A stretch of DNA of 64,000 nucleotides from Thermoplasmatota archaeon (GTDB lineage: Archaea; Thermoplasmatota; Thermoplasmata; Thermoplasmatales; ARK-15), in assembly GCA_031961545.1 (NCBI GenBank), contig JAVRLK010000001.1:75140-139139 (forward strand), written 5' to 3'. Every line of letters starts with the position of its first letter. Position 1 is the stretch's first letter. Both the position numbers and the translations under genes were made by a program. Shown here piece after piece: positions 8,796 to 34,763 of this stretch. The notes below the pieces were generated by a model. The model saw only the letters and a list, made by a program, of their open reading frames with translations, was not told the DNA's origin and made no database searches.

Positions 8796-8797
8796 AG

Positions 8798-8870
8798 CGC
8801 CGCCGGTCGGATTCGAACCGACGACCACTCGGTTAACAGCCGAGCGCTCCACCGGCTAAGCTACGGCGGC
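8798..8870 (-). tRNA. tRNA-Asn (anticodon GTT)
   Basis: Hand-folded 73-nt cloverleaf: acceptor GCCGCCG/CGGCGGC, D stem GCTT/GAGC, anticodon stem CTCGG/CCGAG with loop CTGTTAA, T arm GTCGG-TTCGAAT-CCGAC, discriminator G. No encoded CCA. It is a GC-rich island in AT-rich DNA. Confidence 0.9.
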
Positions 8871-8895
8871 ACATTTGGAAAAGAATGTAAAAGAT

Positions 8896-8903
8896 CTATT
8901 AAA
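8896..8903 (-). promoter_or_regulatory. candidate TATA box for tRNA-Asn
   Basis: TTTAATAG lies at about -33 to -26 from the mature tRNA 5' end, preceded by an A-rich BRE-like stretch. Position-based guess only. Confidence 0.3.
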
Positions 8904-8963
8904 CTTTTTTCTTGATGAAAAGATAAAGATTAAACATTAATACCTATAATCATTTTACCAAAT

Positions 8964-9623: not shown

Positions 9624-9644
9624 TTGTTTTCAATTGTGATTTAA

Positions 9645-10196: not shown

Positions 10197-10400
10197 TTTT
10201 TTGGGCATAAAGTTCTTAAAAAAATATTATTTTTTAATTATAAATATTCAAAGAAATCATAAATTTGTCTATTTTCCACTGAAAAATTTTTTAAAAAAAA
10301 ATTCCTGAAAATTTGAATCACTCCCCTTGATCTCTTTGAATAAATGATTGGTAAATTTTTAATATAATAAAAAAATGAGGTAAACTAAGGTGATAAGGTT

Positions 10401-12312: not shown

Positions 12313-12493
12313 AATAACTCCCCAAAAATACTAATTTAATTATTATATAAAAATTTTTCAAGCTTATAACCCTGTTGTAATACTACATATTTATTGATGC
12401 CTTTTAATAAAATAGATCCCTAATACACTATTTCACTTAAAAAATGTTAAATATAACTTAATTCTTTACCTTTTGATTTTCAAGGGAGTAAGG

Positions 12494-15400: not shown

Positions 15401-17665
15401 ACAACAGAAATATGGAAGATAAGCGGATTGAAGAGAGAAATATTCATGGATGTCTTAAGGAACATTGAAAGGGCATACCTGATAGAAAGGGTGGATATAA
15501 GGGATAATGAGATGGTCTGGAAAAGAAGGGATGTAAAGCCAGAGGAAAGGAAAAAATCAATAAAGTTTCTCATAGGGAAGATACTTTCATACTATGGACC
15601 AATAACTCTATCCGAACTTGCATTTTACCTTAACACTCTTGAAGAGGACGTTTCTCCTTCTTTAAAAGAACTGATTCAGGAAAATGTTGTGGTTGAGGGA
15701 AATTTCCTTCCTGGCTATGAAAAACAGTACATGCTTGCTGAGGATTTTAAAAAAATAAAACCCATTGATTTAATATCAAAAAATGATCTGAAAAACTATA
15801 GATTCACAAAGTTGATGAAAGTAGAAAATAGCATTGATGAGATGTTCAGAACCTATCTTGTTTTCAGCCACCCATACCAGATACATGTAAGGATGAAGGA
15901 ATTCACATACAATGACTGGGTTGAAATGAAGAAAAAGGATATGCTTGTTTATGCAAAATTCCTTGGAAACAGATACTTTTTCACAACAAAGGAGATTGCA
16001 CCATTGTTCAGATTCTGGACATTTGAAATGGACGATATTGCATCAAGAATACTTGGAAAACTTAAATCAGGAATCATGGATGTTCAGGAGATTTCAAGAT
16101 CGCTGGATCTTCATCCAAGGACAGTTAAAAATTACTTAACAATTATGGAAAAGAACCTTATGGTTTCAAGATCCTTTGAGAATGATGCCTATGTTTCACT
16201 TAACCTTGAGGGGAACGGTGACATAAGGGATCTCATAAAGAAAATTATAGAAAAACTGGGTCCCTTGACTGTTAAAGATATTGAGTATTTCATAGATATA
16301 CCCAAGGAAAACATTATGCCAATAATAAACGAAATGGATATTGAAAGATTCTACGCTGAGGGAAACTACTATTATGGTGAATTCAAAAAAGTTGAAAAGA
16401 AAGGTATTTTTGTTCTTTTACCTGAAGGTGATCCTTTCCTATTACCATATCACTTTGAATTAATTGAAAAATTTGGTGAGGGCTATAACTATTTCCTTGT
16501 AAACGATGGTGAAATTATCGGAGCAGCGGATATTGAGGATAATGGTGATCATCTCCATGTTTTTAAAATAAACTGTGGCAATGATTACATTGACATTTTT
16601 GTTGAAAAGGTGATTGAACTATCAAATTTCCTTGGTAACATAAATATTATTTTCTCCAATGTAACTGAAAATCTAATAAAATCTTTGAAGAAAAATGGAT
16701 TCGAAAAACATGGTAATTTTTATTCAAGGCCAAAGGTTTCGGGATTGCAGCTTGGGCAGGAAAATCTTTACAGGTATGTTTCCAGAAGACAGGGGCTTGA
16801 TGTGGAAACAAGGCTTAAAAATATAATTGAATTAGAAAAGAATTTTCCTGGTATAAGGAGTGATCTCGAGGCATTGATCAGAACATGGAGGTACATATCA
16901 CTTGAAAGGTTGAAAAGAAGCGGTATTTTGTACCTTACCTACGGCATTCCACCAATAAACACGTACGCAAGCATGGAAAATATTGTTCTTTTCAAATCAA
17001 TTAAGGATGCAAGGATTGAAAAAATACATGAAAGCATAATAAAAATGGTAAGGGAACTTCAGTATGAGGATGAAATAATCAACGAATCGCCCTTCGGTGA
17101 GGAAATTACAAAAAATGCTCTTGATTATCTATTCAAAAACAATTACATTGTTAAGGGGCCTAGGGATGAATACATTGTTGTAGAAAACATGCTTGACAGG
17201 GATTATGCAATAAAGGTTTACATTGAGAAACTTTTCAACATATTCGGTGCATTAAACATTAAAAAAATCATGAACATCACATATGGATTGATTGATGTTG
17301 ATGATATAAAGAAAGCATTGAATACTATTTATAAAGAAAATAAAATTTCAAATGTTTTCTTTAAGGATGAACTCTTTTATTTGCCATCAAATGATATTAA
17401 ATCTTTAAAATCTAAAAGAATGGATCTAGAAATAATCCTGGATCCCCATGATATTGCATACCTTTACATGCAGGATTATCTGAAGAATTATGTGGAACCG
17501 GGTAAATTCGTTATTCTTAAGGGTCTTGAAATCATAGGATCCTTCAGGGCAGTAAAGAGGAAAAATATCTGGACAATTTATGATTTCTCAGGATCCGATC
17601 ATGCAAAAACTGTTCTTGAATCCGTTATGAGATCCATGGGCATAAGGGTTGAGTTCAAAGAATAA
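12494..17665 (+). CDS. lhr: Lhr-family SF2 helicase (Lhr core plus ~830-aa C-terminal extension)
   Basis: Helicase motifs SSPTGSGKT, VYVSPLKALAND, IIDETHEL, GLSAT, LIFTNTR, SSTSLELGIDIG and QRIGRSGH. DEAD-associated region FPFGRRVNDALSRAFAYQIANRY. ATG 12494 (MIYRIEKRY) is preferred over the TTG at 12473. Confidence 0.9.
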   Translation: MIYRIEKRYSKDEVLGLLDPIVREWFESKFKDITEPQAYAIPYIHKGKNVLVSSPTGSGKTLTGFLSIINELFLLAKQGKLEDKVYCVYVSPLKALANDIHRNLEEPLEEINQLAKKKGIEIPKINVAVRSGDTPQNQRQRMLRKPPHIFITTPESLALVLSSPKFKERFRNVKYLIIDETHELSSNKRGVMLSLNAERLERLTGHLVRIGLSATQSPIEEMAKFVAGYDDKGDVRDIYIAEVEAKKSLDLKVITPVPDLVNTPYEIANERMYDVLVDIINSHKTTLIFTNTRSGTEHVAFKLRERGIKSLEAHHSSLGKATRLRVEEMLKKGELKCVISSTSLELGIDIGYIDMVVQIGSPKSIAKGLQRIGRSGHKYGDISRGRMVVFDMDDLVECTVITKSVYENNIDRVFVPKNSLDVLAQVIVGMSLEDVWNVDEAYKLIKRSYCYHDLKKEKFLEVLDYLSGKSYGETFYSKIWYDEKEGVFGKKRSSRMIFFMNMGTIPEEADYVVIDENNVPLGELSEKFVERLREGDIFVLGARTYEFIRVRGSRVYVKSAEGKRPTVPSWAGEMLPRSFDLSIEVGKFRKKIMEMIKKKEDVVKYLMDEYYLDYSGAVSIYKYIMEQMVDYVPTNEGVLIEGYVDPSNMYNIIFHFPFGRRVNDALSRAFAYQIANRYNTNTRITVTDDAFMISTNKKIPIDSIPGLVRAENLERDLKNAIRNTELFKQRFRHCATRSFMILKKYKGADISVTKQQLKSDKILEILSEIPNFPVIEETYNEIFNIVMDLPNAREILYKIENGEIEVKLKDYSDEPSIFSNGVILASISDIVLMEDRSSLLKEIHMKILKKVLPEESVHLLEPEEVKNYFRNKFSIENENDIIKFIESVGAADILSEKGVNIYSFSKMKFDDLKALALKLIREGRLKSVYTDRAVFTLPQFVPYYMAVYSKGITIDETVEKILNNIDGKTTTEIWKISGLKREIFMDVLRNIERAYLIERVDIRDNEMVWKRRDVKPEERKKSIKFLIGKILSYYGPITLSELAFYLNTLEEDVSPSLKELIQENVVVEGNFLPGYEKQYMLAEDFKKIKPIDLISKNDLKNYRFTKLMKVENSIDEMFRTYLVFSHPYQIHVRMKEFTYNDWVEMKKKDMLVYAKFLGNRYFFTTKEIAPLFRFWTFEMDDIASRILGKLKSGIMDVQEISRSLDLHPRTVKNYLTIMEKNLMVSRSFENDAYVSLNLEGNGDIRDLIKKIIEKLGPLTVKDIEYFIDIPKENIMPIINEMDIERFYAEGNYYYGEFKKVEKKGIFVLLPEGDPFLLPYHFELIEKFGEGYNYFLVNDGEIIGAADIEDNGDHLHVFKINCGNDYIDIFVEKVIELSNFLGNINIIFSNVTENLIKSLKKNGFEKHGNFYSRPKVSGLQLGQENLYRYVSRRQGLDVETRLKNIIELEKNFPGIRSDLEALIRTWRYISLERLKRSGILYLTYGIPPINTYASMENIVLFKSIKDARIEKIHESIIKMVRELQYEDEIINESPFGEEITKNALDYLFKNNYIVKGPRDEYIVVENMLDRDYAIKVYIEKLFNIFGALNIKKIMNITYGLIDVDDIKKALNTIYKENKISNVFFKDELFYLPSNDIKSLKSKRMDLEIILDPHDIAYLYMQDYLKNYVEPGKFVILKGLEIIGSFRAVKRKNIWTIYDFSGSDHAKTVLESVMRSMGIRVEFKE

Positions 17666-18677
17666 TTTTTATCTTTTCACCACACTTTGAACATCTTCCA
17701 TCGGGTGTAAGGTTTTCAATCTTTATATTATAGCCAGATCTCCTTATCAGCCTTGCCCCGCATTTTGGACAGTAGGTACTTTCATACTTTTCATCCCATA
17801 CGTTACCAAGGTAAACATAGTTTATTCCCTCCTCCTTTGCTATTCTGTAAGCCTTCAAAAGTGTTTCCATTGGTGTTTCATAGAGATTCATTAACTTGTA
17901 ATCCGGATGAAACCTTGAAAAATGCACGATGGAATCCTTACCAAAAACATCAAACATCCATTTTGAAAAATTCCTTATCTCATCCTCCTTATCGTTAAGT
18001 GTTGGTATTATGAGATATGTTATTTCAACATGTATGCCAAGATCCCTGGCCCTTTCCACGGTCTCAAGAACAGGTTCAAGTCTTCCACCAACTATTTTTC
18101 TATAAAATTCATCCGTGAATCCCTTAACATCAATGTTCATCGCATCTATGTACTTTGAAAGTTCCTTAAGGGGTTCTTCGTTTATGTATCCATTCGTTAC
18201 ATAAACGTTGTACATTCCTCTTGATTTGGAAATCTTTGAAGCTTCAAGGTTGAACTCAAACCATATTGTTGGCTCGTTGTATGTCCAGGCAATGCCATCG
18301 GATCCCTCCTCAACCGCAAGATCAACTATTTCCTCAGCAGAATAGTTCCTGAGAGGAAAATTTTCAACCATGCTCTGGCTTATTTCCCAGTTCTGACAGT
18401 GTTTGCATTTAAGGTTACAGCCAACCGTACTGAGGGAAAATATCCATGATCCGGGATGGAAATGGAAAAGCGGCTTTTTCTCAATGGGATCCATTGCCAT
18501 TGCACTTACCTTCCCATAGACCATTGAGTACAATTTTCCGTCAATGTTTTTTCTAACATTGCATATACCGTATTTACCATTATCTATTATGCATCTGTGT
18601 GGACATAAGGTGCATCTTACCCTTTTCCCGTCAATTTTTTCGTAATATTCAGCCTCGTGTAAAGTGTTCGTATCCAT
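17655..18677 (-). CDS. AmmeMemoRadiSam-system radical SAM enzyme (PflA-like activase fold)
   Basis: N-terminal Cys-rich CTLCPHRCIIDNGKYGICNVRKN, radical SAM cluster motif GCNLKCKHCQNW, and C-terminal CPKCG...CSKCG. ATG 18677 is preferred over the TTG at 18686. Confidence 0.85.
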   Translation of the reverse strand: MDTNTLHEAEYYEKIDGKRVRCTLCPHRCIIDNGKYGICNVRKNIDGKLYSMVYGKVSAMAMDPIEKKPLFHFHPGSWIFSLSTVGCNLKCKHCQNWEISQSMVENFPLRNYSAEEIVDLAVEEGSDGIAWTYNEPTIWFEFNLEASKISKSRGMYNVYVTNGYINEEPLKELSKYIDAMNIDVKGFTDEFYRKIVGGRLEPVLETVERARDLGIHVEITYLIIPTLNDKEDEIRNFSKWMFDVFGKDSIVHFSRFHPDYKLMNLYETPMETLLKAYRIAKEEGINYVYLGNVWDEKYESTYCPKCGARLIRRSGYNIKIENLTPDGRCSKCGEKIKIIL

Positions 18678-19596
18678 ACTTTTCAATTTTCACCTCCTCA
18701 TTATTTTTTATCAGCAAATTATCTCCTTCCCATACCTCACCAATTTGCGTGACCATATAACCCTTTTGTTTCATTCCCTTTTCAACTGTATCCCATAATT
18801 CCCTGTTAACGGTGAAAAAGATCTCATACTCACCACCAAAGTTAAGGAATATTTCCTCACCTGGAATTTTCAATTCATCCATTACCTTCAATGCAATCGG
18901 GTGTTTTGGTAATTTTTCATAGTATATTTTAAAACCCAAACCTGTTTGTTTTTTTAGTTGATGAACAACGGAAAATATTCCATCGGAGAGATCCATTGCA
19001 CTTTTAACACCAAGCCTTGATAGTTCCCTTGCCTCATTTATCCTTGGTTCTATATCAATAAGAATATCCGCACCTTCATCAAAACCATTCTTCCATAAAT
19101 AGTAACCCGCTGCGTTTTTACCAAGATAATTTGTTACACCCACCACATCACCATTCTTAACATTTTTCCTTTTCATTATTCTATCCTTTTCAACCCTACC
19201 AATTGCTATTCCCGTTGCAACAAAATCGGGACCTTCCTTTGTATCCCCTCCAACCATGCTAACATTGTATTTTTTCAAACAGTCCAAAATTCCCTTATTA
19301 AAATCAAAAAAGAAATCAAAATCAGTATCACCCTTCATTGAATATGATGTCATGAAAAATTCAGGTATACCCCCCATTGCCGCTATATCGCTCAAATTGA
19401 GTGATGCAAAAAAATATCCTGCTTTTTCAGGGTTAACGTTATCGGGTATGTGTGTTTCCTTTGATATTGAATCCGTTGTTATCAAAATGTATTCGCCGGC
19501 AGATTCAAAATAAAATGCATCATCCTCAACAACTGTTCCGTAGAGATCCATCAACGATTTTATAATTTTTCTTTCACCAAGGTCATTAAGATGCAT
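18649..19596 (-). CDS. thiL: thiamine-monophosphate kinase (AIR synthase-related fold)
   Basis: GERKIIKSL, TTDSISKETH, NLSDIAAMGG and VGGDT motifs. Its 3' end overlaps the radical SAM start by about 29 nt. Confidence 0.8.
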   Translation of the reverse strand: MHLNDLGERKIIKSLMDLYGTVVEDDAFYFESAGEYILITTDSISKETHIPDNVNPEKAGYFFASLNLSDIAAMGGIPEFFMTSYSMKGDTDFDFFFDFNKGILDCLKKYNVSMVGGDTKEGPDFVATGIAIGRVEKDRIMKRKNVKNGDVVGVTNYLGKNAAGYYLWKNGFDEGADILIDIEPRINEARELSRLGVKSAMDLSDGIFSVVHQLKKQTGLGFKIYYEKLPKHPIALKVMDELKIPGEEIFLNFGGEYEIFFTVNRELWDTVEKGMKQKGYMVTQIGEVWEGDNLLIKNNEEVKIEKYGYEHFTRG

Positions 19597-22290: not shown

Positions 22291-22890
22291 TCACCTGTAC
22301 TCTGGCAATTCCTCCCCCTTCTTTATCAATTCATCAAGTATTTTATTTGCATCATTCTCATCAAGTCCAACCTTTTTAATTAAAAATTCAAGCAATTCCT
22401 CCCTGCTCATTCCTTCACTAATCTTTTCATTGATCATTGAAATTATGTGATCCCTTACCATGTTACTGAATTCTTCCTCAAGCTTGAATTCCCTTATCAT
22501 AAGATAAAGGGATGTTACCATTGCCATTAGGGCATCACCAAATTCCTTTTTGTCAATTGATGAAAGGTCAAGATCAATCTTTAAAACAATCTCCTCATTT
22601 TCTCCCGAAAGAGCAAACTTTACAAAATTAACGCCATCGTTAAGTATGAGTAACTTTCTTGCAAAGTCAAGTCTCTGAATGGAATCAAGAAGGGCTGTCT
22701 CAATACCCGTTGAAATAATTAGTGAAACAAAATCATCATGGAATTCAATAAAAAGAGTATATGGTAATCTTGGATTTTCTGCAATTAAATTCCCATCACT
22801 TTCCCTCACATTCCATACCATGTCCAGCAAATCGTTTTTCTTTCCTGTGCCTGATGTTAACCAATTTTTAATTTCCTCTTTGTAATTCAT
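22291..22890 (-). CDS. hypothetical protein, YbjN/secretion-chaperone-like pattern; first gene of the RPA operon
   Basis: The pattern LPYTLFIEFHDDFVSLIISTG...ARKLLILNDGVNFVKFALSGENEEIVLKIDLDL is reminiscent of the YbjN family. The ATG at 22890 has GGTGA 5 nt upstream; an alternative ATG lies at 22911. There is a 5-nt gap to RPA. Confidence 0.55.
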   Translation of the reverse strand: MNYKEEIKNWLTSGTGKKNDLLDMVWNVRESDGNLIAENPRLPYTLFIEFHDDFVSLIISTGIETALLDSIQRLDFARKLLILNDGVNFVKFALSGENEEIVLKIDLDLSSIDKKEFGDALMAMVTSLYLMIREFKLEEEFSNMVRDHIISMINEKISEGMSREELLEFLIKKVGLDENDANKILDELIKKGEELPEYR

Positions 22891-22929
22891 CCTTTCACCC
22901 TTTTTAAACATTATGATTTGGTATTTAAA

Positions 22930-25191
22930 CTATTTTCCAAAACTTTCCTCTATAAACTTCAATCCAAGTTTGTTGTCCCTCTTTATGAACGCTCTTTTTG
23001 TCTCCTCCTCCTCATACTCAAAAACAACCCAGGTCTCCTTATCAACAATGTATGCATAATAATCGGGCTTGATTATTGAATGTGGTTTGTATGCAATTGT
23101 ACAAACAACAATTGGTTTATCCGTCTGATCCCTGAGTTTGTTCAAAACAGCTTCAAGCGTTTTTCCTGTATCGGCAATATCATCAACAAGCAGAACATAA
23201 TTTGAAACATTTTTTAAATTACCTGTAAATTCGCCCAGTTTAACATGCGTGCTTGGAGTACCATCCTCAAGGTAATAGGATGCCTTTATACTCTGTACAT
23301 CCTTTACATTAAGGTAATCGCTGAGCAGTCTTCCTATTACCATTCCTCCTCTTTCAATGTAAACAAGTAAATCCGGCCTTCCCCTTGTTTTAAGTATTTC
23401 ATCTGCGAGCTTTTTTGCATAATATTTCATGCTCTGAAAACTAAGGAAAACATACTTTTTCTTTTCACTTTCAAATTTCAGGAATTCCAGCCATTCTCTT
23501 GCACTGAGAAGAAGATCGTTTATTACACCAGAATCCCTGAGTTTCTTTGATAACCTGACAGCCTTTGGAGGAAGAAGGCTTGATTCCTTCAGAATATCAT
23601 CCCTCAGGAACAGTTCTTCAGGAGATCCATCGAATATTATTTTACCCCTTTTCATAACAACAGTTCTTCTGCAGTATTCAGCAACAAGCCTCATGTCATG
23701 TGTTATGACAATTATTGTTGTACCATCCATGTTCAGTTCAAAGAGTAAATCCATTATCTCCCTTGACATTTTATAATCCTGACCTGTTGTAGGTTCATCA
23801 ACAATCAATATCTTTGGTCTCATGGCAATTACACTTGCTACAGCCAGCCTTCTTTTCTCACCCCTGCTGAGAAAAAGAGGATCTTCGAATTTCTTGCTCA
23901 GCAAGCCAACCCTTTTAAGTGTTTCATCAATAATTGGTTCAATGTTCTTTTCACCTATGTTTTTCAGTCCATAGGCAATTTCATCCCTGACTGTTCTGTT
24001 GAATATCTGATGAACCGGATTCTGAAAAACGTAACCAACATATTCTGGTATCTTTTCCCTTACCTTTTTATCAGATAGATCCATACCAAGTATCTTCACT
24101 GATCCCTTCCATTTTGTAAGATAACCCGATATTATTTTTGAAAATGTACTTTTACCGGATCCGTTCTGACCAACAAGGGCGATCATTTCACCCTTCCCGA
24201 CAACAATATTTATACCATTCAGCGCCCTTGTACCATCAGGATAATCATATACAAGATCCTTTACCTCTATTATATTTTCCCCTTTTACACTCTTTCCCCT
24301 TTCGAGTTTGAATCCCCTTGCAATTTCAAGATCCACCTTTTTCAAAAATTCTTCATCATCCACCATCCTTTCTATTTCAGGTACCTCTATATATTTTCTT
24401 GACATTTCATCTGAAAATATCTTTTCTGGAGTATCAAGCATAACTATTTCTCCATTGTAAAGAACAGCAAGCCTGTCCGTGAACTTCATAAGAATTTCAG
24501 GATCATGTTCAACAAGTATTACCGTAATATCTCCCTTTTCCTTGACATTCTTTATTGCCTCTATAATCTCCATCTTCCCGAGAGAATCAAGATCCGATGT
24601 GGGTTCATCAAGTATCAATATTTTTGGTCTCATTGCAAGGAAACTTGCAAGAATTAGTCTCTGTTTCTGACCACCTGAAAGTTCAGATGGATGAAGTTTG
24701 TCCAATACTGGATAAAGATCACCAAGTCCGACAAGTTCCAGGGATTCCTTTATCCTATTCTCCATCTCCTCCTTTGAAAGGCCCATGATACGCATACCAA
24801 GTGTTATTTCTGTTAGCGCACTCATGGTTAAAAACTGGCTTTCCGGATCCTGCATAACAAGACCAAGATCCGGTGCAGCATTCTTTTCTCCAACCAGAAC
24901 GTATCCATTCTCTCCTTTTTCAATCTTTGATATTGTTTTACCAAGAACTATTACTTCCCCGCTGAAGTAATTCTCAATTTTACCGTCTGGAACCTTAATC
25001 TGGTGTGGTATAATTCCTGAAATTAATTGGCAGAGTGTTGATTTTCCTGAACCTGTAGAACCCGTTATACCAAAGAATTCATTTTTATAGATTTGAAGGT
25101 TTATATTTTTCATCTGAAAGTTGGATTCCTTTCCGGAAAAGGATGGATATTTCCAGTTCACATTCTTCAGTTCTATAACAACATCAGCCAT
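22930..25191 (-). CDS. ECF-transporter tandem ATPase (EcfA-EcfA' fusion) with C-terminal Gpt-like phosphoribosyltransferase domain
   Basis: Cassette 1: GSTGSGKST, LSGGQKQR, ILILDEPTSDLD, LVEHD. Cassette 2: GQNGSGKST, LSRGEKRR, ILIVDEPTTGQD, VITHD. The last ~175 aa carry IERGGMVIG, YVLLVDDIADTGKTL and TWVVFEYE, as in xanthine-guanine PRTase. Confidence 0.9.
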   Translation of the reverse strand: MADVVIELKNVNWKYPSFSGKESNFQMKNINLQIYKNEFFGITGSTGSGKSTLCQLISGIIPHQIKVPDGKIENYFSGEVIVLGKTISKIEKGENGYVLVGEKNAAPDLGLVMQDPESQFLTMSALTEITLGMRIMGLSKEEMENRIKESLELVGLGDLYPVLDKLHPSELSGGQKQRLILASFLAMRPKILILDEPTSDLDSLGKMEIIEAIKNVKEKGDITVILVEHDPEILMKFTDRLAVLYNGEIVMLDTPEKIFSDEMSRKYIEVPEIERMVDDEEFLKKVDLEIARGFKLERGKSVKGENIIEVKDLVYDYPDGTRALNGINIVVGKGEMIALVGQNGSGKSTFSKIISGYLTKWKGSVKILGMDLSDKKVREKIPEYVGYVFQNPVHQIFNRTVRDEIAYGLKNIGEKNIEPIIDETLKRVGLLSKKFEDPLFLSRGEKRRLAVASVIAMRPKILIVDEPTTGQDYKMSREIMDLLFELNMDGTTIIVITHDMRLVAEYCRRTVVMKRGKIIFDGSPEELFLRDDILKESSLLPPKAVRLSKKLRDSGVINDLLLSAREWLEFLKFESEKKKYVFLSFQSMKYYAKKLADEILKTRGRPDLLVYIERGGMVIGRLLSDYLNVKDVQSIKASYYLEDGTPSTHVKLGEFTGNLKNVSNYVLLVDDIADTGKTLEAVLNKLRDQTDKPIVVCTIAYKPHSIIKPDYYAYIVDKETWVVFEYEEEETKRAFIKRDNKLGLKFIEESFGK

Positions 25192-26039
25192 TGCAATACA
25201 CCCAGCTGTATTGTTAAATTATAAAAATAGGATATATATAGTGAAATTATGGAAAGAGCAATTAAAATTGCATCACCAAATGTTGGTTTTACTTCAATAA
25301 CAGGTTTGGATAACTTTTTGGCCTTTGAGAATCCCCTTGCCTCAAGTGCGGTACCCATTTCAACAGCCCTTTTTATCATGAGTGCAGTTAATGGAATCGC
25401 CAAGGCTATGAAATCCTTTGCCCTCTTAAACAAATTTTTTGATTTTTGTCCACCTCCTCTTGCAAACTGTGCATGTCTTATTGATTCCAGATCCTCCGCC
25501 ATTATGTTTAATGATCTGAATATAAGGGTAAAGAAAATTGATATTTTGAAAGGTAATCCTATTTGACTCAGTGCCTCAACAATTTCTGCATCCCTCGTTG
25601 TCATAAGAACAAGGAGTGTAAAAAGTGCCATCGAACCATATCCAAGCATCTTTGCAACACCTATGTAAAGTGATTGATATGTGATCTTAAAACCGTAAAA
25701 TGAAAATATGATATCATTGCCAACCTGATTGAAAACTAACCACCATATAAGGAAAACGAAAAGGGCTATAATAATAAGAACAAGATAGGACTTTACCAAA
25801 TATTTCAATGTTCCGCTCTCTATCAAAAATGCTAGAACAAAAATAAAAACTAAAAGTGAAAAGAGAAGATCAGGATAGGGCTTTGTCATGGCAAATATAA
25901 CAGCTATTGAAAAAATAACAAGAATTGAAAATTTTGTGAATGGATGCAATTTTACAAAGATAGAATTTGCCCTGGCGGAGAAGAGAATAGTTCGAATGTA
26001 TTTCTTTTCACCAGATATGTTTTCTCTATTTCCAGACAT
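25173..26039 (-). CDS. ecfT: ECF transporter transmembrane (T) component, CbiQ/EcfT family
   Basis: Multi-TM protein with the C-terminal coupling motif region (IRHAQFARGG ... ALEARGF). It overlaps the ATPase start by 19 nt. Confidence 0.85.
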   Translation of the reverse strand: MSGNRENISGEKKYIRTILFSARANSIFVKLHPFTKFSILVIFSIAVIFAMTKPYPDLLFSLLVFIFVLAFLIESGTLKYLVKSYLVLIIIALFVFLIWWLVFNQVGNDIIFSFYGFKITYQSLYIGVAKMLGYGSMALFTLLVLMTTRDAEIVEALSQIGLPFKISIFFTLIFRSLNIMAEDLESIRHAQFARGGGQKSKNLFKRAKDFIALAIPLTALMIKRAVEMGTALEARGFSKAKKLSKPVIEVKPTFGDAILIALSIISLYISYFYNLTIQLGVLQWLMLL

Positions 26040-26040
26040 G

Positions 26041-26664
26041 TTATGATATCAAACCCTTCGCTATAAGACCGTACCTTTCAACTATAGGTGTTAGGGCTTT
26101 TGAAAGGAATGGTGCTATAATCAATACTATTGCATCCCCTATTATCCATAGAGCTGAACCAAGCCAGTAAGCACTTGGAGGAACAATACCTAGCACGACA
26201 AGCATCCATACACCCCATAGACCACCTATTATGTTTGTTATTCCCATAACCCAGAGAACAAACCAGAATGCAGCCTTTTTGTTTGTTAAAATATCACGCC
26301 CAAGAGGATCAACACCTATTTTCTTCAAAAATCCCCTGTAAAATGTCAATGTGAGAAGAGCTGGAACAAAATCACCAACACTGAAGGCAAGTGAAGGAAT
26401 AACTGGGAGACCTGTAAGGAGACCTGCACCAATAAAGCAGCCTAAGAATGCGGCAATCACACCCCAGAGGCCCCACCACCAGGTGAAAACAATGAAAAAT
26501 GGATATGCCCAGTAAAGTAATCCTATACCGGGTCCAACAACAGGAGTGGCAATAACACCCAGCCAGGAGAGGAGAATGACAACGGCAATCTGTATGGCAT
26601 AAAGTGCGTACTGTGTTGTTGTATTTTTACCTCCGCCTCGCCATTTTAAGCTTACATCAACCAT
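26041..26664 (-). CDS. putative ECF substrate-capture (S) component, family unassigned
   Basis: 207 aa, about six TM helices, Trp/Gly-rich (FTWWWGLWGVIAAFLGCFIGAG). It lies 1 nt upstream of ecfT. Assignment rests on size, topology and operon position only. Confidence 0.55.
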   Translation of the reverse strand: MVDVSLKWRGGGKNTTTQYALYAIQIAVVILLSWLGVIATPVVGPGIGLLYWAYPFFIVFTWWWGLWGVIAAFLGCFIGAGLLTGLPVIPSLAFSVGDFVPALLTLTFYRGFLKKIGVDPLGRDILTNKKAAFWFVLWVMGITNIIGGLWGVWMLVVLGIVPPSAYWLGSALWIIGDAIVLIIAPFLSKALTPIVERYGLIAKGLIS

Positions 26665-26725
26665 AGATGATAGTATAATAAAACTATATTTTATCTTTTC
26701 TTTTTAAAAAATTTTTATGTGAGAA

Positions 26726-28466: not shown

Positions 28467-28629
28467 TTTTACCACCTGTCATATAAATATTTAATTTTGT
28501 CTGACATTTGTCTTAATTAACAATTCAGTTTATAAATCTTTCCATTATTTTTACCAATCATTTTTTAACATTGTACCAAAATATTTATATGGGATTTTGC
28601 CTTGTTTTTTCATTGCAGAGGTAGATAGT

Positions 28630-31308
28630 ATGAAGAAAACAACAGCAGCTATTATAGCTGCGGTGGTAGTGATTGTTGTAGTGGTAGCAGCAGTAGCAGT
28701 AGTAATGTATAAACCATCGAGTACAACGACTACAACTTCAACACCAACTCCACCACCTGTTTCAGGACCAACAGCGGTTTCTGTATCTGCATCCACACAA
28801 CTTGCATCTGCAGGAAGTGAAATAACATTCACAGCAACGGTTACGGGAAATGCAACATCCGTAACGTGGAACTTCGGTGATGGTTCTACGGCAACAGGAT
28901 TAACTGTTAATCACGCTTATCAATATGCTGGATCATACCTTGTTGAAGTAAATGCTTCAAATTCAGCGGGATATGTTACAAACCTTGCCCATCTGTTTCC
29001 AGTAACAATAACAGCTCCCCAGCTTTCACCATCTGTGGCAAGTGAAGCTTCACAGCCAGTTATAACGTTCAACACAACAATAAACAAAAATGCACCAATA
29101 TTTGGAATAAATGAAAATGCTAATTTTCTACTATCATATCTCCAGCCACCATCCGCAGCAAACTGGTCCCTTGCATACTATGTTATAAACTTCGGTGATG
29201 GAAACTCAGCTGTTTATCCTGTCCAATACAACAGTTCATCAGGATCATTTTTGAGCCAACTTGTTACTCACACCTATTCTAAACCAGGTATTTACACAGT
29301 AACATTAACATTGATATCTTATAACCAGACAAATTTCATGAATGATCTCGTTGTAAACAATACAACATCCATAAGCTATTTACCAACAAGCTATATGTCA
29401 CAGGTTTTGAGTGGAGAGCATTATAATATGACAGCCATGTACACAATAGTTGTTGCATCAAATGTTCAAACAGTTGGTATATTAAAAGGAGCTGGAAATG
29501 TTCCAAATCCCGGTGTGATAAATGTTGCTGAGGTTGTGCCCAGTGGCCCATATTCATTTGATCCAGCAATAGACTATGAAACAGTGGGTTATGAGATAAT
29601 AGCAAATGTTTATGAAACATTGATAGCATACAATGGATCAAGCACAACACAATTTGTACCAATAGTGGCAAAACAGGTACCATCCATTTCCAATGGCCTC
29701 ATTTCACCAGATGGCTTGAATTACACATTCTACATTAGGTCAGGACTGAAATTTGCAAACGGAGATCCTGTGACAGTGTTTGATGTGTATGCAAGCTTGG
29801 TAAGAACATTACTCTTCATGACCGGAGAACCGGGAACAGCAGGTTGGATCCTTGCACAGGATCTTTTGCCAGGTGGCGGATGGGCATTGAACTGGTCCAA
29901 TGGACAATCTCTTTATACGAATATTACAAGCGCTATAACATACAACAATGCAACACAGAGTATAACATTCCATCTTTTGAAACCAGATCCGGCATTTCTG
30001 TACTATGTTGCAGATGCGCTTGGTGGTGGAATTGTCGATTATAATTGGCTTGTCCAGCATGGAGCAGGCATACAGTTTACACCGTCAGGATTCCTGAATT
30101 ACACAAAATTTGGGAACGAGGCAAACTATAATACCTATGTGCGCTGGAATACCATGGGGTCAGGTCCTTACATGATTGAATCATACTTACCTGGACAATC
30201 AATTGTCCTTGCACCAAATCCTAACTTCGTTCCAATCCCTGGTGTTCCCGGGTACAATAAAGTTCCAACACTTAAGGTATATATACAGTGGGTAAAGGAT
30301 CCTGAAACAGCATTATTGATGATGGAAAGTGGTCAATCTGATATAACAAACGGATTGCCAACATCAGATTATCCAATAGCTGCTTCACTGCAATCACAGG
30401 GTAAATTGAATATATATTTCTTCCCCACACTTTCAGTCTTCTTCTTTAACTTCGTATGGAACGTTAATGTATCAATGATGCAGAGTGTTTACGGGTCCCA
30501 GTATCACTTGCCATACAACTATTTTGCCAATCCTCTTGTAAGAAAGGCATTTGCATATGCATTCAACTACACGGATTATATTGACTATATACTTGGTAAC
30601 AAAGTATACCATGCAAACTTCGGATTCCATTACACCGGAATAATACCAAAGGGCATGATTGGCTATGTTCCTCCACAGAACCTTTCAAATGTCCCAGTAT
30701 ATAATCTTACACTTGCAAAACAGTTCATGATGGAATCTGGAATGTACAATGTGAGCGTGAACATACCTATAGTAATATATGCCGGTGATCCTATTGACTA
30801 TGCTGCAGCAGGCATGTGGGCACAGAATCTTACCGCAATGGATCCAAATATACACGCATCACCTGTTTATCAGCCATTCTCTGCAACAATAGGTTACATG
30901 GTTCCGGGTGCAAATCCAATGCCTATCTATCTATTAGGATGGGCACCTGACTATCCATATCCTTCAGATTACGTAAACGCAATGTACCTGGAAGGTGGAA
31001 CATATCCAGCAGCAAATGGATGGAATTATACCAACTTAATGGCATGGAATTACACGCAGGAAGCACAGGAATGGAAGAACATGACAAATCTGATACTTCA
31101 GGCTGACAGTACTGCCAATGAAACACTTGCAATACACCTATACGATCAGGCAGAACAGATTGCTGTGAATCTAACATTGTTCGTTTACACATACCAATCA
31201 AATGCCTTCTGGTTCTATTCTCCATGGTTGCATGGAGTACAGTATGAGGAAAACCCAATGATCGGCGGTGGCGGTGACACGTTGTACTTCTATTTAACAA
31301 AGGGATAA
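28630..31308 (+). CDS. ABC oligopeptide/dipeptide-family (family 5) substrate-binding protein with N-terminal TM anchor, Thr/Pro linker and two PKD-like domains
   Basis: Anchor MKKTTAAIIAAVVVIVVVVAAVAVV, then linker SSTTTTTSTPTPPP. PKD-like WNFGDGSTATG...HAYQYAGSYLVEVNASN and INFGDGNS...HTYSKPGIYTVTLTL. SBP_bac_5-like core YSFDPAIDYETVGYEIIANVYETLIAYNG. ATG 28630 is preferred over the upstream TTG. Confidence 0.85.
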   Translation: MKKTTAAIIAAVVVIVVVVAAVAVVMYKPSSTTTTTSTPTPPPVSGPTAVSVSASTQLASAGSEITFTATVTGNATSVTWNFGDGSTATGLTVNHAYQYAGSYLVEVNASNSAGYVTNLAHLFPVTITAPQLSPSVASEASQPVITFNTTINKNAPIFGINENANFLLSYLQPPSAANWSLAYYVINFGDGNSAVYPVQYNSSSGSFLSQLVTHTYSKPGIYTVTLTLISYNQTNFMNDLVVNNTTSISYLPTSYMSQVLSGEHYNMTAMYTIVVASNVQTVGILKGAGNVPNPGVINVAEVVPSGPYSFDPAIDYETVGYEIIANVYETLIAYNGSSTTQFVPIVAKQVPSISNGLISPDGLNYTFYIRSGLKFANGDPVTVFDVYASLVRTLLFMTGEPGTAGWILAQDLLPGGGWALNWSNGQSLYTNITSAITYNNATQSITFHLLKPDPAFLYYVADALGGGIVDYNWLVQHGAGIQFTPSGFLNYTKFGNEANYNTYVRWNTMGSGPYMIESYLPGQSIVLAPNPNFVPIPGVPGYNKVPTLKVYIQWVKDPETALLMMESGQSDITNGLPTSDYPIAASLQSQGKLNIYFFPTLSVFFFNFVWNVNVSMMQSVYGSQYHLPYNYFANPLVRKAFAYAFNYTDYIDYILGNKVYHANFGFHYTGIIPKGMIGYVPPQNLSNVPVYNLTLAKQFMMESGMYNVSVNIPIVIYAGDPIDYAAAGMWAQNLTAMDPNIHASPVYQPFSATIGYMVPGANPMPIYLLGWAPDYPYPSDYVNAMYLEGGTYPAANGWNYTNLMAWNYTQEAQEWKNMTNLILQADSTANETLAIHLYDQAEQIAVNLTLFVYTYQSNAFWFYSPWLHGVQYEENPMIGGGGDTLYFYLTKG

Positions 31309-31309
31309 A

Positions 31310-31340
31310 TTTTTAATAAATTATTTTTATTTTTTTATTT
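31310..31340 (+). terminator. oligo-T tract cluster downstream of the binding-protein gene
   Basis: T5, T5 and T7 runs lie within 30 nt of the stop (tttttaataaattatttttattttttta). Archaeal termination typically uses oligo-T. This could attenuate read-through into the permease genes. Confidence 0.35.
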
Positions 31341-31406
31341 AAATATTTATGAGTAATGCTTAAATAAAAGAATCCTTTTAGGGTTTTAAAGAAGGTGACA
31401 GGTTTA

Positions 31407-32474
31407 ATGAAACTGTCCACATACCTGATAAGAAGAACATTGATGCTGATACCAACACTTATTGGATTGACTGTGATTGTTTTTGCATTAAGCAGAGCTG
31501 GTGGTATTCAGCTTGTAATTTCTGCATATATAAATCCACATATACCTTATCAGGTTCAATATAATGAACTGGTTAAGGAATTCCACCTTAACGACCCATT
31601 ATGGGTACAATATTACTATTACCTTGTAAGTTTGTTCCAGGGTAACTGGGGATACACAAGAACAGCAATATATACGGGACCTGTTATCGATGCAATTACA
31701 ATATTTTTGCCAAACACAATACAACTCAGTATTGTTGCATTTATTATTGCTGTCCTGATAGGAATTCCTGCAGGTACTGTCTCGGGCGTTAAAAAAGATA
31801 GTTTGACAGACCAGATAACAAGAGTAATTGCATTTGTAGGTATTTCTCTTCCAGTTTTCTGGCTTGCGCAGATTCTTAGCCTGGCCTTTGCAACTGGTAC
31901 GATTAGCCCGAGCTTCGATATCCTGCCTCTTTCAGGAACCGTTGACGCTAACCTTATAGCAAACTTGAGCTGGGTTCAAAATGGTATTTCATATCCAACG
32001 CATGTTATGATGATTGATGCCTTAATACATGGAGACCTACCTGTCTTCTTTTCAGCATTAAGGCATGTTATTCTTCCTGCAACAACACTCGCCTTTACAA
32101 CAATCGCGCCCATAATGAGGTACATGAGAGCAAGCATGGTTGAAAGCATGAACCAGGATTATGTAAAAACTGCCAGATCAAAGGGTATTCCTGAAAAAAT
32201 TGTAATAAAGAAACATGCAAGGAAAAATGCATTGATACCTGTGACAACAGTTCTTGGCCTTATATTTGCAGGTCTTCTTGGAGGAGTTGTTGTAATAGAG
32301 GAAATATTCAACTACCCTGGAATGGGTTATTGGACAGTTCAGGCATTGATTAACTATGATACGGGTGGAATTATGGGATCCACATTACTCTTTGGTCTAA
32401 TTCTCGTTACAGCAAATTTCATTGTGGATTTACTCTATGCATATATTGATCCAAGGATTAGGCTGGGTGAATAA
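31407..32474 (+). CDS. ABC peptide transporter permease (OppB/DppB-like)
   Basis: N-terminal YLIRRTLMLIPTLIGLTVIVF and the EAA-loop region YVKTARSKGIPEKIVIKKHARKNALIP. SD AAGGTGA lies upstream of ATG 31407. Confidence 0.9.
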   Translation: MKLSTYLIRRTLMLIPTLIGLTVIVFALSRAGGIQLVISAYINPHIPYQVQYNELVKEFHLNDPLWVQYYYYLVSLFQGNWGYTRTAIYTGPVIDAITIFLPNTIQLSIVAFIIAVLIGIPAGTVSGVKKDSLTDQITRVIAFVGISLPVFWLAQILSLAFATGTISPSFDILPLSGTVDANLIANLSWVQNGISYPTHVMMIDALIHGDLPVFFSALRHVILPATTLAFTTIAPIMRYMRASMVESMNQDYVKTARSKGIPEKIVIKKHARKNALIPVTTVLGLIFAGLLGGVVVIEEIFNYPGMGYWTVQALINYDTGGIMGSTLLFGLILVTANFIVDLLYAYIDPRIRLGE

Positions 32475-32476
32475 AT

Positions 32477-33385
32477 ATGGCGGAATATACATTCAGGGAA
32501 AGTTTGAAACCAAGAATTGAGAATTTCAAACTCACAATGTCCATCCTTTTAAAAAGTCCAGCATCATTGATTGGCATGATAATTGTTATTGCCTATATCA
32601 TAATTGCATTGCTTGATCAATTTGATCCTTCAGCTCTCGGTTTAACAGGAAGTGTTGACTACCTTTATCCGAATTTCATAAATACTGTTCCAATGCCACC
32701 TGGTCCCGGACACCCTCTGGGTACAACATACCCTGGTATTGATCTTTATCAAGGAATAATGAAGGCCATAAGAATTGATTTAAGTTTTGCTGTCTTTGTT
32801 GTAACGTTTGGAGCTCTATCTGGAATTCTCATAGGTGTAGTTTCGGCCTATTATGGTGGATGGGTTGATGAGATTGTAATGCGTATAACAGATATTTTCT
32901 TCAGCATTCCATACCTTGTTCTTGCAATAGCTGTAGGTGTATTTCTAGGAAGATCCCTTCTCATTCTCTCAATAGCTCTAATAATAATATGGTGGCCTAT
33001 CTATGCAAGGGTTGTAAGAGGTCAGGTTCTTTCCCTAAGAGAGCAGACATTTGTTGAGGCAGCTAGGGCATCGGGGGTAAAGAATGGAAAAATTATGTTA
33101 AAGCATATACTTCCCAATACATTTGCACCCATATTCGTTCAATTTTCATTCGACCTTGCAACAATAGTCCTCACACTTGCAACATTATACTTCATAGGAT
33201 TTGCACCTTCAAACACATATATGCCGGAACTTGGTTACCTTTCAAGTATAGGTTATGAGTATGCAATTGTGGGTGACTGGTGGACAATAGTATTCCCGGG
33301 TTTTGCATTGCTCATATTCGCTCTTGGAATGAACCTGCTTGGTGATGGTTTAAGGGATGCTCTTGATCCAAGGTTGAGAAGGTGA
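32477..33385 (+). CDS. ABC peptide transporter permease (OppC/DppC-like)
   Basis: FVEAARASGVKNGKIMLKHILPN and the C-terminal GDGLRDALDPRL. Confidence 0.9.
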   Translation: MAEYTFRESLKPRIENFKLTMSILLKSPASLIGMIIVIAYIIIALLDQFDPSALGLTGSVDYLYPNFINTVPMPPGPGHPLGTTYPGIDLYQGIMKAIRIDLSFAVFVVTFGALSGILIGVVSAYYGGWVDEIVMRITDIFFSIPYLVLAIAVGVFLGRSLLILSIALIIIWWPIYARVVRGQVLSLREQTFVEAARASGVKNGKIMLKHILPNTFAPIFVQFSFDLATIVLTLATLYFIGFAPSNTYMPELGYLSSIGYEYAIVGDWWTIVFPGFALLIFALGMNLLGDGLRDALDPRLRR

Positions 33386-33389
33386 TTCA

Positions 33390-34754: not shown

Positions 34755-34763
34755 GGTGAAAAG

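Follow-up and report, generated by a model that had tools for sequence, protein, structure and literature searches.

The locus lies in a 64,000-nt window of a Thermoplasmatota contig, the whole stretch of DNA analyzed here. In the ORF list, it comprises three tightly packed minus-strand genes, encoding an S-component, then a T component, and then an ATPase in which two ABC cassettes are followed by a phosphoribosyltransferase (PRT) domain. The first two genes are separated by 1 nt, and the second overlaps the third by 19 nt. These open reading frames, the gap, and the overlap are exactly as described in the first-pass annotation of this DNA. The features are as follows:

26665..26725, no strand: AT-rich spacer of 61 bp that separates the S gene from a divergently oriented SpoU-type methyltransferase gene (read from the sequence); the presumed promoter region of the S-T-ATPase operon
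26041..26664, minus strand: S-component, 207 aa (AlphaFold2 and Foldseek; without a curated family model)
25173..26039, minus strand: EcfT/CbiQ-type T component (scaffold), 288 aa (PF02361)
22930..25191, minus strand: 753-aa ABC-ABC-PRT protein, whole ORF (PF00005 twice, PF00156)
24397..25191, minus strand: first ABC cassette (EcfA-like), residues 1-265 (PF00005, motifs, NCBIfam ECF ATPase models)
23602..24276, minus strand: second ABC cassette (EcfA'-like), residues 306-530 (PF00005 at residues 324-469)
23467..23601, minus strand: helical C-terminal end of the second cassette, where the PRT is joined, residues 531-575
22930..23466, minus strand: type I purine PRT domain, residues 576-753, with the stop codon (PF00156)

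The 753-aa frame has its sole stop at its end. The PRT is therefore joined to the cassettes without an intervening stop, as first reported, and the four PRT peptides quoted at that time are all present (residues 581, 612, 665, and 720; nt 23011-23451). A missed stop or frameshift between separate ECF ATPase and PRT genes, whether from assembly or gene calling, had been raised as a concern. However, an uninterrupted ABC-ABC-PRT frame is shared by ~60 independent protein clusters (90% identity clustering) and by six separately assembled genomes (66-70% identity), and junction residues F573 and K577 do not vary among 39 fusions. This distribution refutes an artefactual origin, to which we assign a negligible probability.

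Subunits of the importer and the PRT domain

The 288-aa protein matches PF02361 (CbiQ; 7.6e-27) and, among solved ECF complexes, the EcfT chains of 4hzu, 4huq, and 5d3m (~1e-9). An Ala-Arg-Gly motif occurs in it twice, starting at residues 193 and 234. In the 753-aa protein, the first cassette has Walker A at residue 44, the signature LSGGQ at 171, and Walker B at 191, while the second has Walker A at 341, the signature LSRGE at 441, and Walker B at 461. The protein scores 422 and 406 bits against the ECF ATPase models TIGR04521 and TIGR04520 (curated cut-offs 330 and 315, respectively). Among the best PDB sequence matches over the second cassette are CbiO (3gfo) and the EcfA/EcfA' proteins of 4mki and 4huq.

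The 207-aa protein is rich in Trp (6.3%) and Gly (12.6%) and has no Pfam or NCBIfam match. Its AlphaFold2 model (pLDDT 86.9, pTM 0.85) has the fold of an S-component: the best Foldseek matches in the PDB are BioY (4dve), ThiT (4tkr), and FolT (9kym), with probabilities of 0.99-1.0 and TM-scores of 0.57-0.63 for BioY and FolT and 0.43-0.47 for ThiT. We predict that this protein is the substrate-capture subunit and that its cargo is a 6-oxopurine base. The family is rare (130 representatives among 1.84 billion), and no gene of the cassette is better conserved than S, which has 80-86% identity in L001-L006 compared with 62-70% for T and the ATPase. The first-pass annotation had proposed an S-component-like 207-aa protein within an ECF-type S+T+A-A' importer. 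PF02361, the NCBIfam ECF ATPase models, Foldseek, and sequence matches to solved ECF complexes agree on this identity.

The C-terminal domain matches PF00156 (Pribosyltran) at residues 592-724 (1.3e-16; 60.8 bits, cut-off 26.3). Its best PDB sequence matches are Sulfolobus solfataricus GpT-2 (4z1o; 1.1e-16), Pyrococcus horikoshii 1vdm, and GpT-1 (4trb), and it also matches Escherichia coli XGPRT at 6e-7. These matches and the intact catalytic motifs bear out its earlier description as Gpt-like; it is a type I purine PRT of the Gpt or archaeal GpT kind. Little or no variation is seen across the 39 fusions in the PPi loop RGG, the PRPP loop D-D/E-x-x-D-T/S-G-K-T, K702, and W721, and R614-G615-G616, D670, D674, G676, T678, K702, W721, Y726, and E727 are all invariant. 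At the positions aligned with these motifs, E. coli XGPRT has SRGG, DDLVDTGGT, AKP, and DTW. Mean pairwise identity is 0.51 for the PRT domain, 0.53 and 0.57 for the ABC cassettes, and 0.30 for the inter-cassette linker. The PRT domain is as conserved as the cassettes and, judged from its sequence, looks catalytic. PRPP-binding motifs are also conserved in the regulatory PRT-fold proteins PurR and PyrR, which we count against an active PRT. The domain scores below the curated equivalog cut-offs of PRK09177 (XPRT; 56 vs 138 bits), TIGR01203 (43 vs 150), and HPT_Archaea (21 vs 200), and base specificity is thus not readable from family membership.

Alignments of unfused homologues to the 753-aa protein span its residues 5-563 or 5-567. 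In the AlphaFold model, helix 564-575 passes straight into PRT strand 579-583, without a low-confidence linker. Model confidence in the PRT is mostly 83-94 per 10-residue block, dipping to 65 near loop 641-650 and to 70-78 in the last blocks. Judging from solved ECF structures, the attachment region is probably at the membrane-distal end of the ATPase.

Distribution and cargo

Fusion carriers (~60 clusters) belong to Thermoplasmata, Aciduliprofundum, Micrarchaeota, and Marsarchaeota. The order S, then CbiQ, then ABC-ABC-PRT is found in all 11 archaeal loci checked (L001-L006, L022, L023, L024, L034, and L035), and gene neighbours vary among the last five. L010, the closest relative of the organism analyzed here, has lost most of the operon and can therefore do without the system. 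Two short entries (P0001 and P0002) start inside the ATPase C-terminal region and look like truncated calls on short contigs. An unfused orthologous operon, with S 70% identical, occurs in Thermotogota, namely, Athalassotoga (L007) and Mesoaciditoga-like contigs (L025 and L029). More distant unfused S-T-AA operons are found in Bathyarchaeia and Limnocylindrales; these have no riboswitch and no PRT nearby. The clades with high S identity (Thermoplasmata, Aciduliprofundum, Micrarchaeota, Marsarchaeota, and Mesoaciditogales) are mostly acidophiles, for which ATP-driven import may be a better fit than uptake through proton-coupled purine permeases.

We find that RF00167 purine riboswitches precede the unfused operons of L007, L025, and L029 (84.6, 74.3, and 73.2 bits, respectively; gathering score 37). 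They lie directly upstream of the orthologous operon in two acidophilic Thermotogota lineages and agree with the canonical consensus of purine aptamers across the whole of the ligand-binding junctions. All of these aptamers have GACUAC at the specificity position, which, by comparison with the xpt and add aptamers, we take to be the guanine-class C74. In L007, the aptamer is followed by a terminator-like hairpin with a T-run, as in OFF switches. An Rfam scan of the whole window returned nothing above threshold except two tRNAs, and no riboswitch was found in the archaeal loci.

Guanine-class riboswitches before orthologous operons are an independent pointer to a 6-oxopurine substrate and lend support from outside the archaeal locus to the purine cargo that had been guessed at first. 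Guanine riboswitches also govern purine nucleoside transporters and biosynthesis genes. Thus, the riboswitch alone indicates "purine-related" rather than "free base". The cargo is most likely guanine, hypoxanthine, or xanthine.

The PRT might instead activate a purine-like compound, such as a 7-deazaguanine (preQ0, for archaeosine), 8-oxoguanine, uric acid, or benzimidazole or another cofactor base. The S family is new and rare, and the PRT clade falls below every curated equivalog cut-off. Furthermore, ECF S-components typically carry vitamins and cofactor precursors, and their cargo includes queuosine precursors (QrtT; PMC11477304). However, the riboswitches are canonical purine riboswitches with a guanine-type discriminator, not preQ1 or other classes, and the nearest solved PRT relatives are bona fide purine PRTs. 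In addition, tRNA-guanine transglycosylases take free preQ0 without phosphoribosylation. We therefore regard a cargo other than a canonical purine base as improbable.

The role of the fused PRT

The three genes probably encode an ECF-type, ATP-driven purine-base importer with built-in trapping of its cargo as GMP, IMP, or XMP. The S subunit would capture the substrate, the 288-aa protein would serve as the EcfT scaffold, and the 753-aa chain would provide both ATPase cassettes. The C-terminal 6-oxopurine PRT would convert the imported base and PRPP to a nucleoside monophosphate near the transporter, such that the cargo would be trapped by phosphoribosylation and passed into salvage. Uptake would thereby be coupled to phosphoribosylation, and the ATPase and PRT may also be coupled kinetically or allosterically. 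In the model, the PRT comes after the helices that end the second cassette, probably on the membrane-distal side; this position fits metabolic trapping and not true group translocation, and with that end probably far from the membrane, no direct channel is evident. If correct, the fusion ties purine uptake directly to salvage. Importer and PRT are also linked outside the fusion itself: in L035, an additional PRT gene comes directly after the fused gene, and P0056 has two intact PRT domains in tandem. In the literature searched, we found no description of an ECF-PRT fusion or of a purine ECF transporter.

The PRT could also be mainly a cytoplasmic sensor that binds PRPP or GMP/IMP and gates the ATPase of a purine importer, as in MetN, ModC, and MalK trans-inhibition or the regulators PurR and PyrR, with catalysis absent or secondary. 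It sits at the ABC ATPase C-terminus, as do the regulatory domains of other ABC importers, and the modeled run of helix 564-575 directly into the PRT fold would suit mechanical coupling. In fusion variants of 846-886 aa, the catalytic motifs have disappeared from a second PRT-like domain, indicating that non-catalytic PRT folds are tolerated in this context. The archaea also have no counterpart to the riboswitch control of the bacterial orthologues, a gap that a protein-level feedback device would fill. Nevertheless, invariance extends beyond PRPP binding to residues for chemistry and base stacking (D674, K702, W721, and the A-S-Y-Y loop with Y640). Stand-alone paralogues of the same clade (160-200 aa), one of them operonic, resemble ordinary enzymes. 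A primarily sensory PRT is thus rather unlikely, although sensing and catalysis can coexist.

Alternatively, the fusion might reflect co-expression in the Rosetta-stone sense, with the PRT acting on the general base pool and gaining nothing from proximity. Orthologous transporters are unfused in Thermotogota, Bathyarchaeia, and Limnocylindrales, and in L035 the fused gene is directly followed by a separate gene for another intact PRT from this clade (43% identity). The attachment point is also probably distant from the S subunit, judging from the model and solved ECF structures. Yet the fusion has been kept across ~50% sequence divergence in four archaeal lineages, and its junction residues are invariant. 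Such retention points to the fused state itself as a target of selection and leaves little likelihood that the fusion is mechanistically meaningless.

Comparison with known systems

We compared the proposed importer with dedicated, group I-like ECF systems (CbiMNQO and BioMNY) and with solved ECF-FolT and ECF-PanT complexes (4huq, 4hzu, 5d3m, and 9kym). It shares with them an EcfT/CbiQ protein with two Ala-Arg-Gly motifs, two EcfA/CbiO-type cassettes, a small BioY/ThiT/FolT-like S-component, and a single operon for all subunits. Unlike in these systems, both cassettes are on one polypeptide, the S-component is outside curated families, a nucleobase is predicted as cargo in place of a vitamin or metal, and the ATPase bears a fused metabolic enzyme.

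In Bacillus subtilis, xpt-pbuX encodes a xanthine PRT and a xanthine permease under a guanine riboswitch. There, too, a purine-base importer is genetically tied to a PRT that consumes its cargo, and the Thermotogota orthologues sit under a riboswitch of that class, which in L007 has a terminator-type expression platform. In contrast to PbuX, an NCS2 proton symporter, the ECF system would be ATP-driven, and the archaeal link is a protein fusion, not an operon, in loci without a riboswitch.

The PRT has the type I fold of E. coli XGPRT (Gpt), GpT-2 (4z1o), GpT-1 (4trb), and P. horikoshii 1vdm and shares their RGG PPi loop, DDxxDTG PRPP loop, Lys-Pro, and base-stacking Trp. It differs from them in its clade-specific tail (E-T-x-x-x-F ... 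N-x-x-G-x-x-F) and A-S-Y-Y loop, in its covalent attachment to an ABC ATPase, and in scoring below all equivalog cut-offs. MetNI (C2 domain), ModBC, and MalK likewise have an extra C-terminal domain on the ABC ATPase, and the PRT could, like these, sense a cargo-related metabolite in the cytoplasm. Their domains are non-enzymatic ligand-binding folds, whereas the full catalytic motif set is kept here.

Group translocation and vectorial metabolism are exemplified by the sugar PTS and by vectorial acylation by FadL/FadD, and membrane-associated PRTs were reportedly proposed in the 1970s to translocate purines. As in group translocation, uptake here would be linked to a chemical modification that traps the cargo. 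Transport, however, would be energized separately, by ATP hydrolysis in the ABC cassettes. The modeled PRT does not appear to be a membrane component, and phosphoribosylation would thus come after translocation rather than be the translocation step.

The ECF transporter operon

The first-pass annotation described three closely packed minus-strand genes, and we find the open reading frames at the positions claimed:

26041-26664, minus strand: S gene, 207-aa membrane protein
25173-26039, minus strand: T gene, 288-aa EcfT/CbiQ-type protein
22930-25191, minus strand: fusion gene, 753-aa protein with a tandem ATPase followed by a phosphoribosyltransferase (PRT) domain

The S and T genes are separated by 1 nt, and the T and ATPase genes overlap by 19 nt. 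The PRT is joined to the tandem ATPase without an intervening stop, the sole stop of the 753-aa frame lying at its end, and all four peptide motifs quoted for the fusion are present in it. The S protein is rich in Trp (6.3%) and Gly (12.6%), as described. A 206-aa protein is encoded on the same strand 18 nt downstream of the fusion (22291-22911, minus strand), and weak winged-helix-like matches at its C-terminus are its only signals. It is syntenic in L001 and L003-L006 (archaeal loci that carry the same gene cassette) and is kept in the transporter-less locus L010; it is missing from L002 and from more distant cassettes, and therefore is probably not part of the transporter system.

The T protein matches PF02361 in Pfam (7.6e-27) and, in the PDB, the EcfT chains of 4hzu, 4huq, and 5d3m (~1e-9), and it carries Ala-Arg-Gly coupling motifs at residues 193 and 234. 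Its score against the CbiQ model TIGR02454 is 55 (cut-off 112), which rules it out as a cobalt-specific CbiQ equivalog. The 753-aa protein passes both curated cut-offs of the NCBIfam ECF-ATPase equivalogs (TIGR04521, 422 bits against 330; TIGR04520, 406 bits against 315). Both of its ABC cassettes are complete, with Walker A, signature, Walker B, and H-loop, and PDB matches of the ATPase include CbiO (3gfo) and EcfA/EcfA' of 4huq. Eleven archaeal loci, and bacterial loci as well, keep the gene order S, T, ATPase, and none of them has a solute-binding protein (SBP) gene within the gene cassette.

The 207-aa protein has no match to a Pfam or NCBIfam family. It had been called S-component-like, and structural comparison supports that description: in a Foldseek search, the best PDB matches of its AlphaFold2 model (pLDDT 86.9, pTM 0.85) are the ECF S-components BioY (4dve), ThiT (4tkr), and FolT (9kym, 4z7f). 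Foldseek probability is 0.99-1.0 for 4dve, 4tkr, and 9kym, with a best E-value of 2.9e-3 and TM-scores of 0.57-0.63 for BioY and FolT and 0.43-0.47 for ThiT; the other matches are unrelated helical bundles of low probability. The S protein is thus predicted, at the level of fold and not of sequence family, to adopt the six-helix S-component fold. With the scaffold, two ABC cassettes, the modeled S fold, and co-localized genes that lack an SBP, the three-gene system shows each testable hallmark of an ECF importer, which is what the first-pass annotation had proposed.

S is the most conserved of the three genes (80-86% identity, versus 62-70% for the other two). Its family has few members: in a profile search over 1.84 billion representatives, 130 matched with E <= 1e-3 and ten with E <= 1e-30, and the ten of these 130 that were scanned contained no known family. 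The only Pfam signal of the S family is a sub-threshold similarity to MASE1 (PF05231). Against a gathering cut-off of 29.8 bits, the window protein reaches 12.1 bits (E 0.1) and the distant members scanned 19-26 bits; weak matches to the first half of the domain occur in 10 of the 23 members of the family alignment (best 1.4e-6). Because every score of the window protein and the scanned distant members falls below the Pfam cut-off, we do not assign S to the MASE1 membrane sensor domain. A distant kinship between MASE1 and ECF S-components may be reflected in this similarity. The database entries inspected name the S protein "hypothetical" or, in one UniRef entry, "MASE1 domain-containing protein."

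The fused phosphoribosyltransferase

The 753-aa protein ends in a PF00156 PRT domain (1.3e-16), whose best solved relative by sequence is Sulfolobus solfataricus GpT-2 (4z1o, 1.1e-16); others are the purine PRT of Pyrococcus horikoshii (1vdm), S. solfataricus GpT-1 (4trb), and E. coli XGPRT (6e-7). The Gpt-like motifs noted at first reading do align to E. coli XGPRT (ERGG/SRGG, VDDIADTGKT/IDDLVDTGGT, YKP/AKP, ETW/DTW). The domain has the PRPP loop (VDDIADTGKT, residues 669-678) and PPi loop (ERGG, 613-616) of a type I 6-oxopurine PRT, together with a Lys (K702) and an aromatic residue (W721) that we take, from XGPRT structures, to bind and stack on the base, respectively. Across 39 fusions of ~50% identity, R614-G615-G616, D670, D674, G676, T678, K702, W721, Y726, and E727 are invariant, and an A-S-Y-Y loop (637-640) is nearly so. 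Overall conservation of the PRT (0.51) is close to that of the ABC cassettes (0.53 and 0.57), versus 0.30 for the inter-cassette linker. This pattern fits an active enzyme. Family cut-offs are not reached for any curated purine-PRT equivalog (PRK09177 XPRT, 56 versus 138 bits; TIGR01203 HGPRT, 43 versus 150; PRK09162, 36 versus 181; HPT_Archaea, 21 versus 200), and we therefore file the domain as a distinct clade of the superfamily rather than as Gpt or Hpt.

A search of 5.8 billion proteins recovered the ABC-ABC-PRT architecture in ~60 clusters at 90% identity (708-975 aa). This maps its phyletic spread, which the first-pass annotation had left to be established: where sources are named, they are archaeal (Thermoplasmata/Thermoplasmatales, Aciduliprofundum, Micrarchaeaceae, and Marsarchaeota). 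Six species-representative genomes encode a full-length orthologue of 66-70% identity, and F573 and K577 at the junction do not vary among the 39 aligned fusions. Together with the ~60 clusters, these observations refute an assembly or frameshift artefact. Module order is also constant, a ~210-230-aa protein without a family being followed by CbiQ and ABC-ABC-PRT in all archaeal loci checked: L001-L006, L022 (Thermoplasmatales archaeon B_DKE), L023 (a Marsarchaeota MAG), L024 (an ENA contig), L034 (a Micrarchaeaceae MAG), and L035. Gene neighbors vary among L022, L023, L024, L034, and L035; in L022, CTP synthase lies directly downstream of the gene cassette (8771-10399).

The PRT complement of the fusions is variable. 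In many fusions, 846-886 aa long, a second PRT-like domain is present but degenerate, without catalytic motifs:

C-terminal ~100-130 aa: degenerate second PRT-like domain, in fusion proteins P0059, P0068, P0073, P0076, and P0079

Another fusion, P0056 (975 aa), has two intact PRT domains, the second at ~790-975, and in L035 a separate intact PRT gene of the same clade (6343-6897; 43% identity to the window domain) directly follows the fused gene. These variants tie the PRT clade more closely, in function, to the transporter, and they suggest a dimeric PRT that at times receives its partner in cis; the second PRT may be such a partner or may confer a second base specificity. Stand-alone members of the clade are 160-200 aa long. 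The few with named sources are from Marsarchaeota, and two further loci (L008, L009) are from Micrarchaeota, where no ECF genes are adjacent to the PRT.

In the AlphaFold2 model of the fusion (pLDDT 84.3), helix 564-575 passes straight into the first PRT strand with no disordered stretch, while the inter-cassette linker (residues ~270-300) is of low confidence. Such a rigid junction, like the degenerate second domains, favors a reading in which the PRT fold is mainly a PRPP or nucleotide sensor that gates the ATPase, comparable to the regulatory domains of MetN, ModC, and MalK. The catalytic and base-binding residues are invariant, which argues against a sensor, and we regard this reading as unlikely.

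Distribution and cargo

The same operon is found in the bacterium Athalassotoga saccharophila (Thermotogota, L007), where the double ATPase is an unfused 585-aa protein. Identity to the window proteins is 70% (S), 55% (T), and 53% (ATPase). The S value (L007 4477-5121 against window 26041-26664), higher than those of T and ATPase, suggests unusually strong constraint on the S subunit, and such identity across the Archaea-Bacteria divide suggests inter-domain horizontal transfer. The lineages of this high-S-identity clade, including its bacterial members, are presumably acidophiles. More distant unfused operons of S, T, and double ATPase occur in Bathyarchaeia (L031, L032) and Limnocylindrales (L033), with S proteins 44-48% identical to the family profile. 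Since orthologous transporters work unfused in other lineages, the fusion might have no kinetic consequence at all; its retention over ~50% divergence argues instead for selection on the fusion itself, and we hold this reading to be very unlikely.

A purine riboswitch (RF00167; 84.6 bits, gathering score 37, E = 1e-15) lies directly upstream of the Athalassotoga S gene (L007 4320-4421) and is followed by a terminator-like hairpin with a T-run (4416-4442). Judged by sequence, the arrangement is that of an OFF switch that responds to a ligand. The Mesoaciditoga-like contigs L025 and L029, which carry the unfused operon and represent another lineage, likewise have an aptamer upstream of it, at 3826-3927 (74.3 and 73.2 bits). 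The aptamers of both lineages keep the consensus junctions and have GACUAC at the specificity position, which we take, from the xpt and add aptamers, to correspond to C74 of guanine/hypoxanthine/xanthine sensors and not to U74 of adenine sensors. An upstream aptamer with a guanine-type discriminator, the feature of a guanine-riboswitch regulon, was thus found in the bacterial orthologues only. No riboswitch or other Rfam element, and no purine aptamer, was detected in the window and nine archaeal loci, and for archaea such an absence of riboswitches is to be expected. Rfam elements were likewise missing from the loci of Bathyarchaeia and Limnocylindrales.

The riboswitch places the transporter in a purine regulon, and from the PRT fusion we further expect a free base as cargo. 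A non-canonical, purine-like cargo would also suit an importer of this kind, yet the aptamers are of the canonical guanine class and we hold such a cargo to be very unlikely. B12 or benzimidazole, considered because MetH adjoins the operon in Athalassotoga, was dropped once the purine riboswitch was found. Inspection of the Athalassotoga flanks for PRT and purine genes revealed genes for an SBP, an ABC-2 exporter, and MetH but no PRT. Elsewhere, nucleotide-metabolism genes flank the gene cassette in some lineages, and adenylosuccinate lyase is encoded convergently downstream in the Mesoaciditoga-like contigs (L025 7406-8645). In the window, an AIRS-domain gene (18649-19596) considered as PurM of de novo purine synthesis proved to be ThiL.

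The closest relative of the window organism, Thermoplasmatota MAG TVZ.SD19.225 (L010), has flanking proteins 95-98% identical to those of the window. Between the same SpoU and downstream genes (L010 3264-4121, compared with window 22930-26664), all that remains is the initial ~190 bp of the S gene plus three fragments of the ATPase/PRT gene. Two internal fragments have a DNA identity of 78-85%; the PRT 3' end and the flanks reach 92-96%. In L010 the operon seems to have been deleted or to have decayed recently, barring a problem of MAG assembly, and would therefore be an accessory system lost recently in that lineage.

Other genes of the window include a 1730-aa Lhr-type helicase (12473-17665, plus strand) with DEAD, Helicase_C, WH_Lhr, and DEAD_assoc domains within its first ~830 residues and no Pfam match at 1e-8 in its C-terminal ~900 residues, and a 799-aa open reading frame (55693-58092, minus strand) without a Pfam family at E <= 1e-8. 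An Opp/Dpp-type ABC system (28597-36050, plus strand) adjoins FtsZ; in its 903-aa SBP, the SBP_bac_5 domain is preceded by an N-terminal stretch rich in Thr and Val and by a PKD domain. The rest of the window consists of ordinary genes of an archaeal chromosome, encoding gyrase A and B, a GatB/GatE-family amidotransferase subunit, and class II aminoacyl-tRNA synthetases, including a ProRS-type enzyme, and matches suggest two RPA-like genes.

Mechanism and relation to known systems

We consider it probable that the system is an ECF purine-base importer with built-in trapping of its cargo as GMP, IMP, or XMP. The S subunit would capture a 6-oxopurine base, EcfT and the tandem ATPase would drive import, and the appended PRT would convert the base and PRPP to GMP, IMP, or XMP, so that the cargo would be held as nucleotide. 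In the AlphaFold2 model, the PRT is placed after the C-terminal helices of the second ABC cassette, and the C-terminal helical region of ECF ATPases is, we assume, their membrane-distal end. This position therefore fits trapping by proximity, not a group-translocation step at the membrane. A more elaborate scheme, which we think quite unlikely, is allosteric coupling of the PRT and ATPase, in which ATP hydrolysis and substrate release would be gated by PRPP binding or by PRT turnover. Each cycle would pass one base directly to phosphoribosylation, and in the PRT-PRT and PRT-pseudoPRT variants the partner for PRT dimerization would come in cis. If true, this would amount to ATP-plus-PRPP-driven "group translocation" of nucleobases, which was proposed in the 1970s and, to our knowledge, never shown for any transporter.

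Full-text literature searches uncovered no account of either a purine ECF transporter or an ECF-PRT fusion. The fusion entries inspected are named ECF or ABC ATPase, or hypothetical protein, with "hypoxanthine phosphoribosyltransferase" appended in a single JGI entry. Under such names, a likely route of purine salvage in Thermoplasmata, Micrarchaeota, and Marsarchaeota goes unrecognized; in organisms of this sort, the dependence between host and symbiont is believed to be shaped by nucleotide scavenging. ECF transporters are known for the import of vitamins, cofactor precursors, and metals, and a nucleobase-specific system with its own S-component would widen that range. The S proteins form a new family of S-components for which a specific substrate is predicted, and the riboswitch link makes this prediction directly testable. 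We know of no characterized ABC importer whose ATPase carries an enzyme that consumes its cargo. The fusion is thus a rare, conserved, and tractable case of an importer bearing the enzyme for its cargo, and an experimental handle on whether coupling uptake to metabolism gives a kinetic advantage. Nearest in function among known systems is the xpt-pbuX pair of Bacillus, which a guanine riboswitch controls; in the present case the transporter is an ATP-driven ECF system and, in Archaea, transporter and PRT are joined in a protein fusion.
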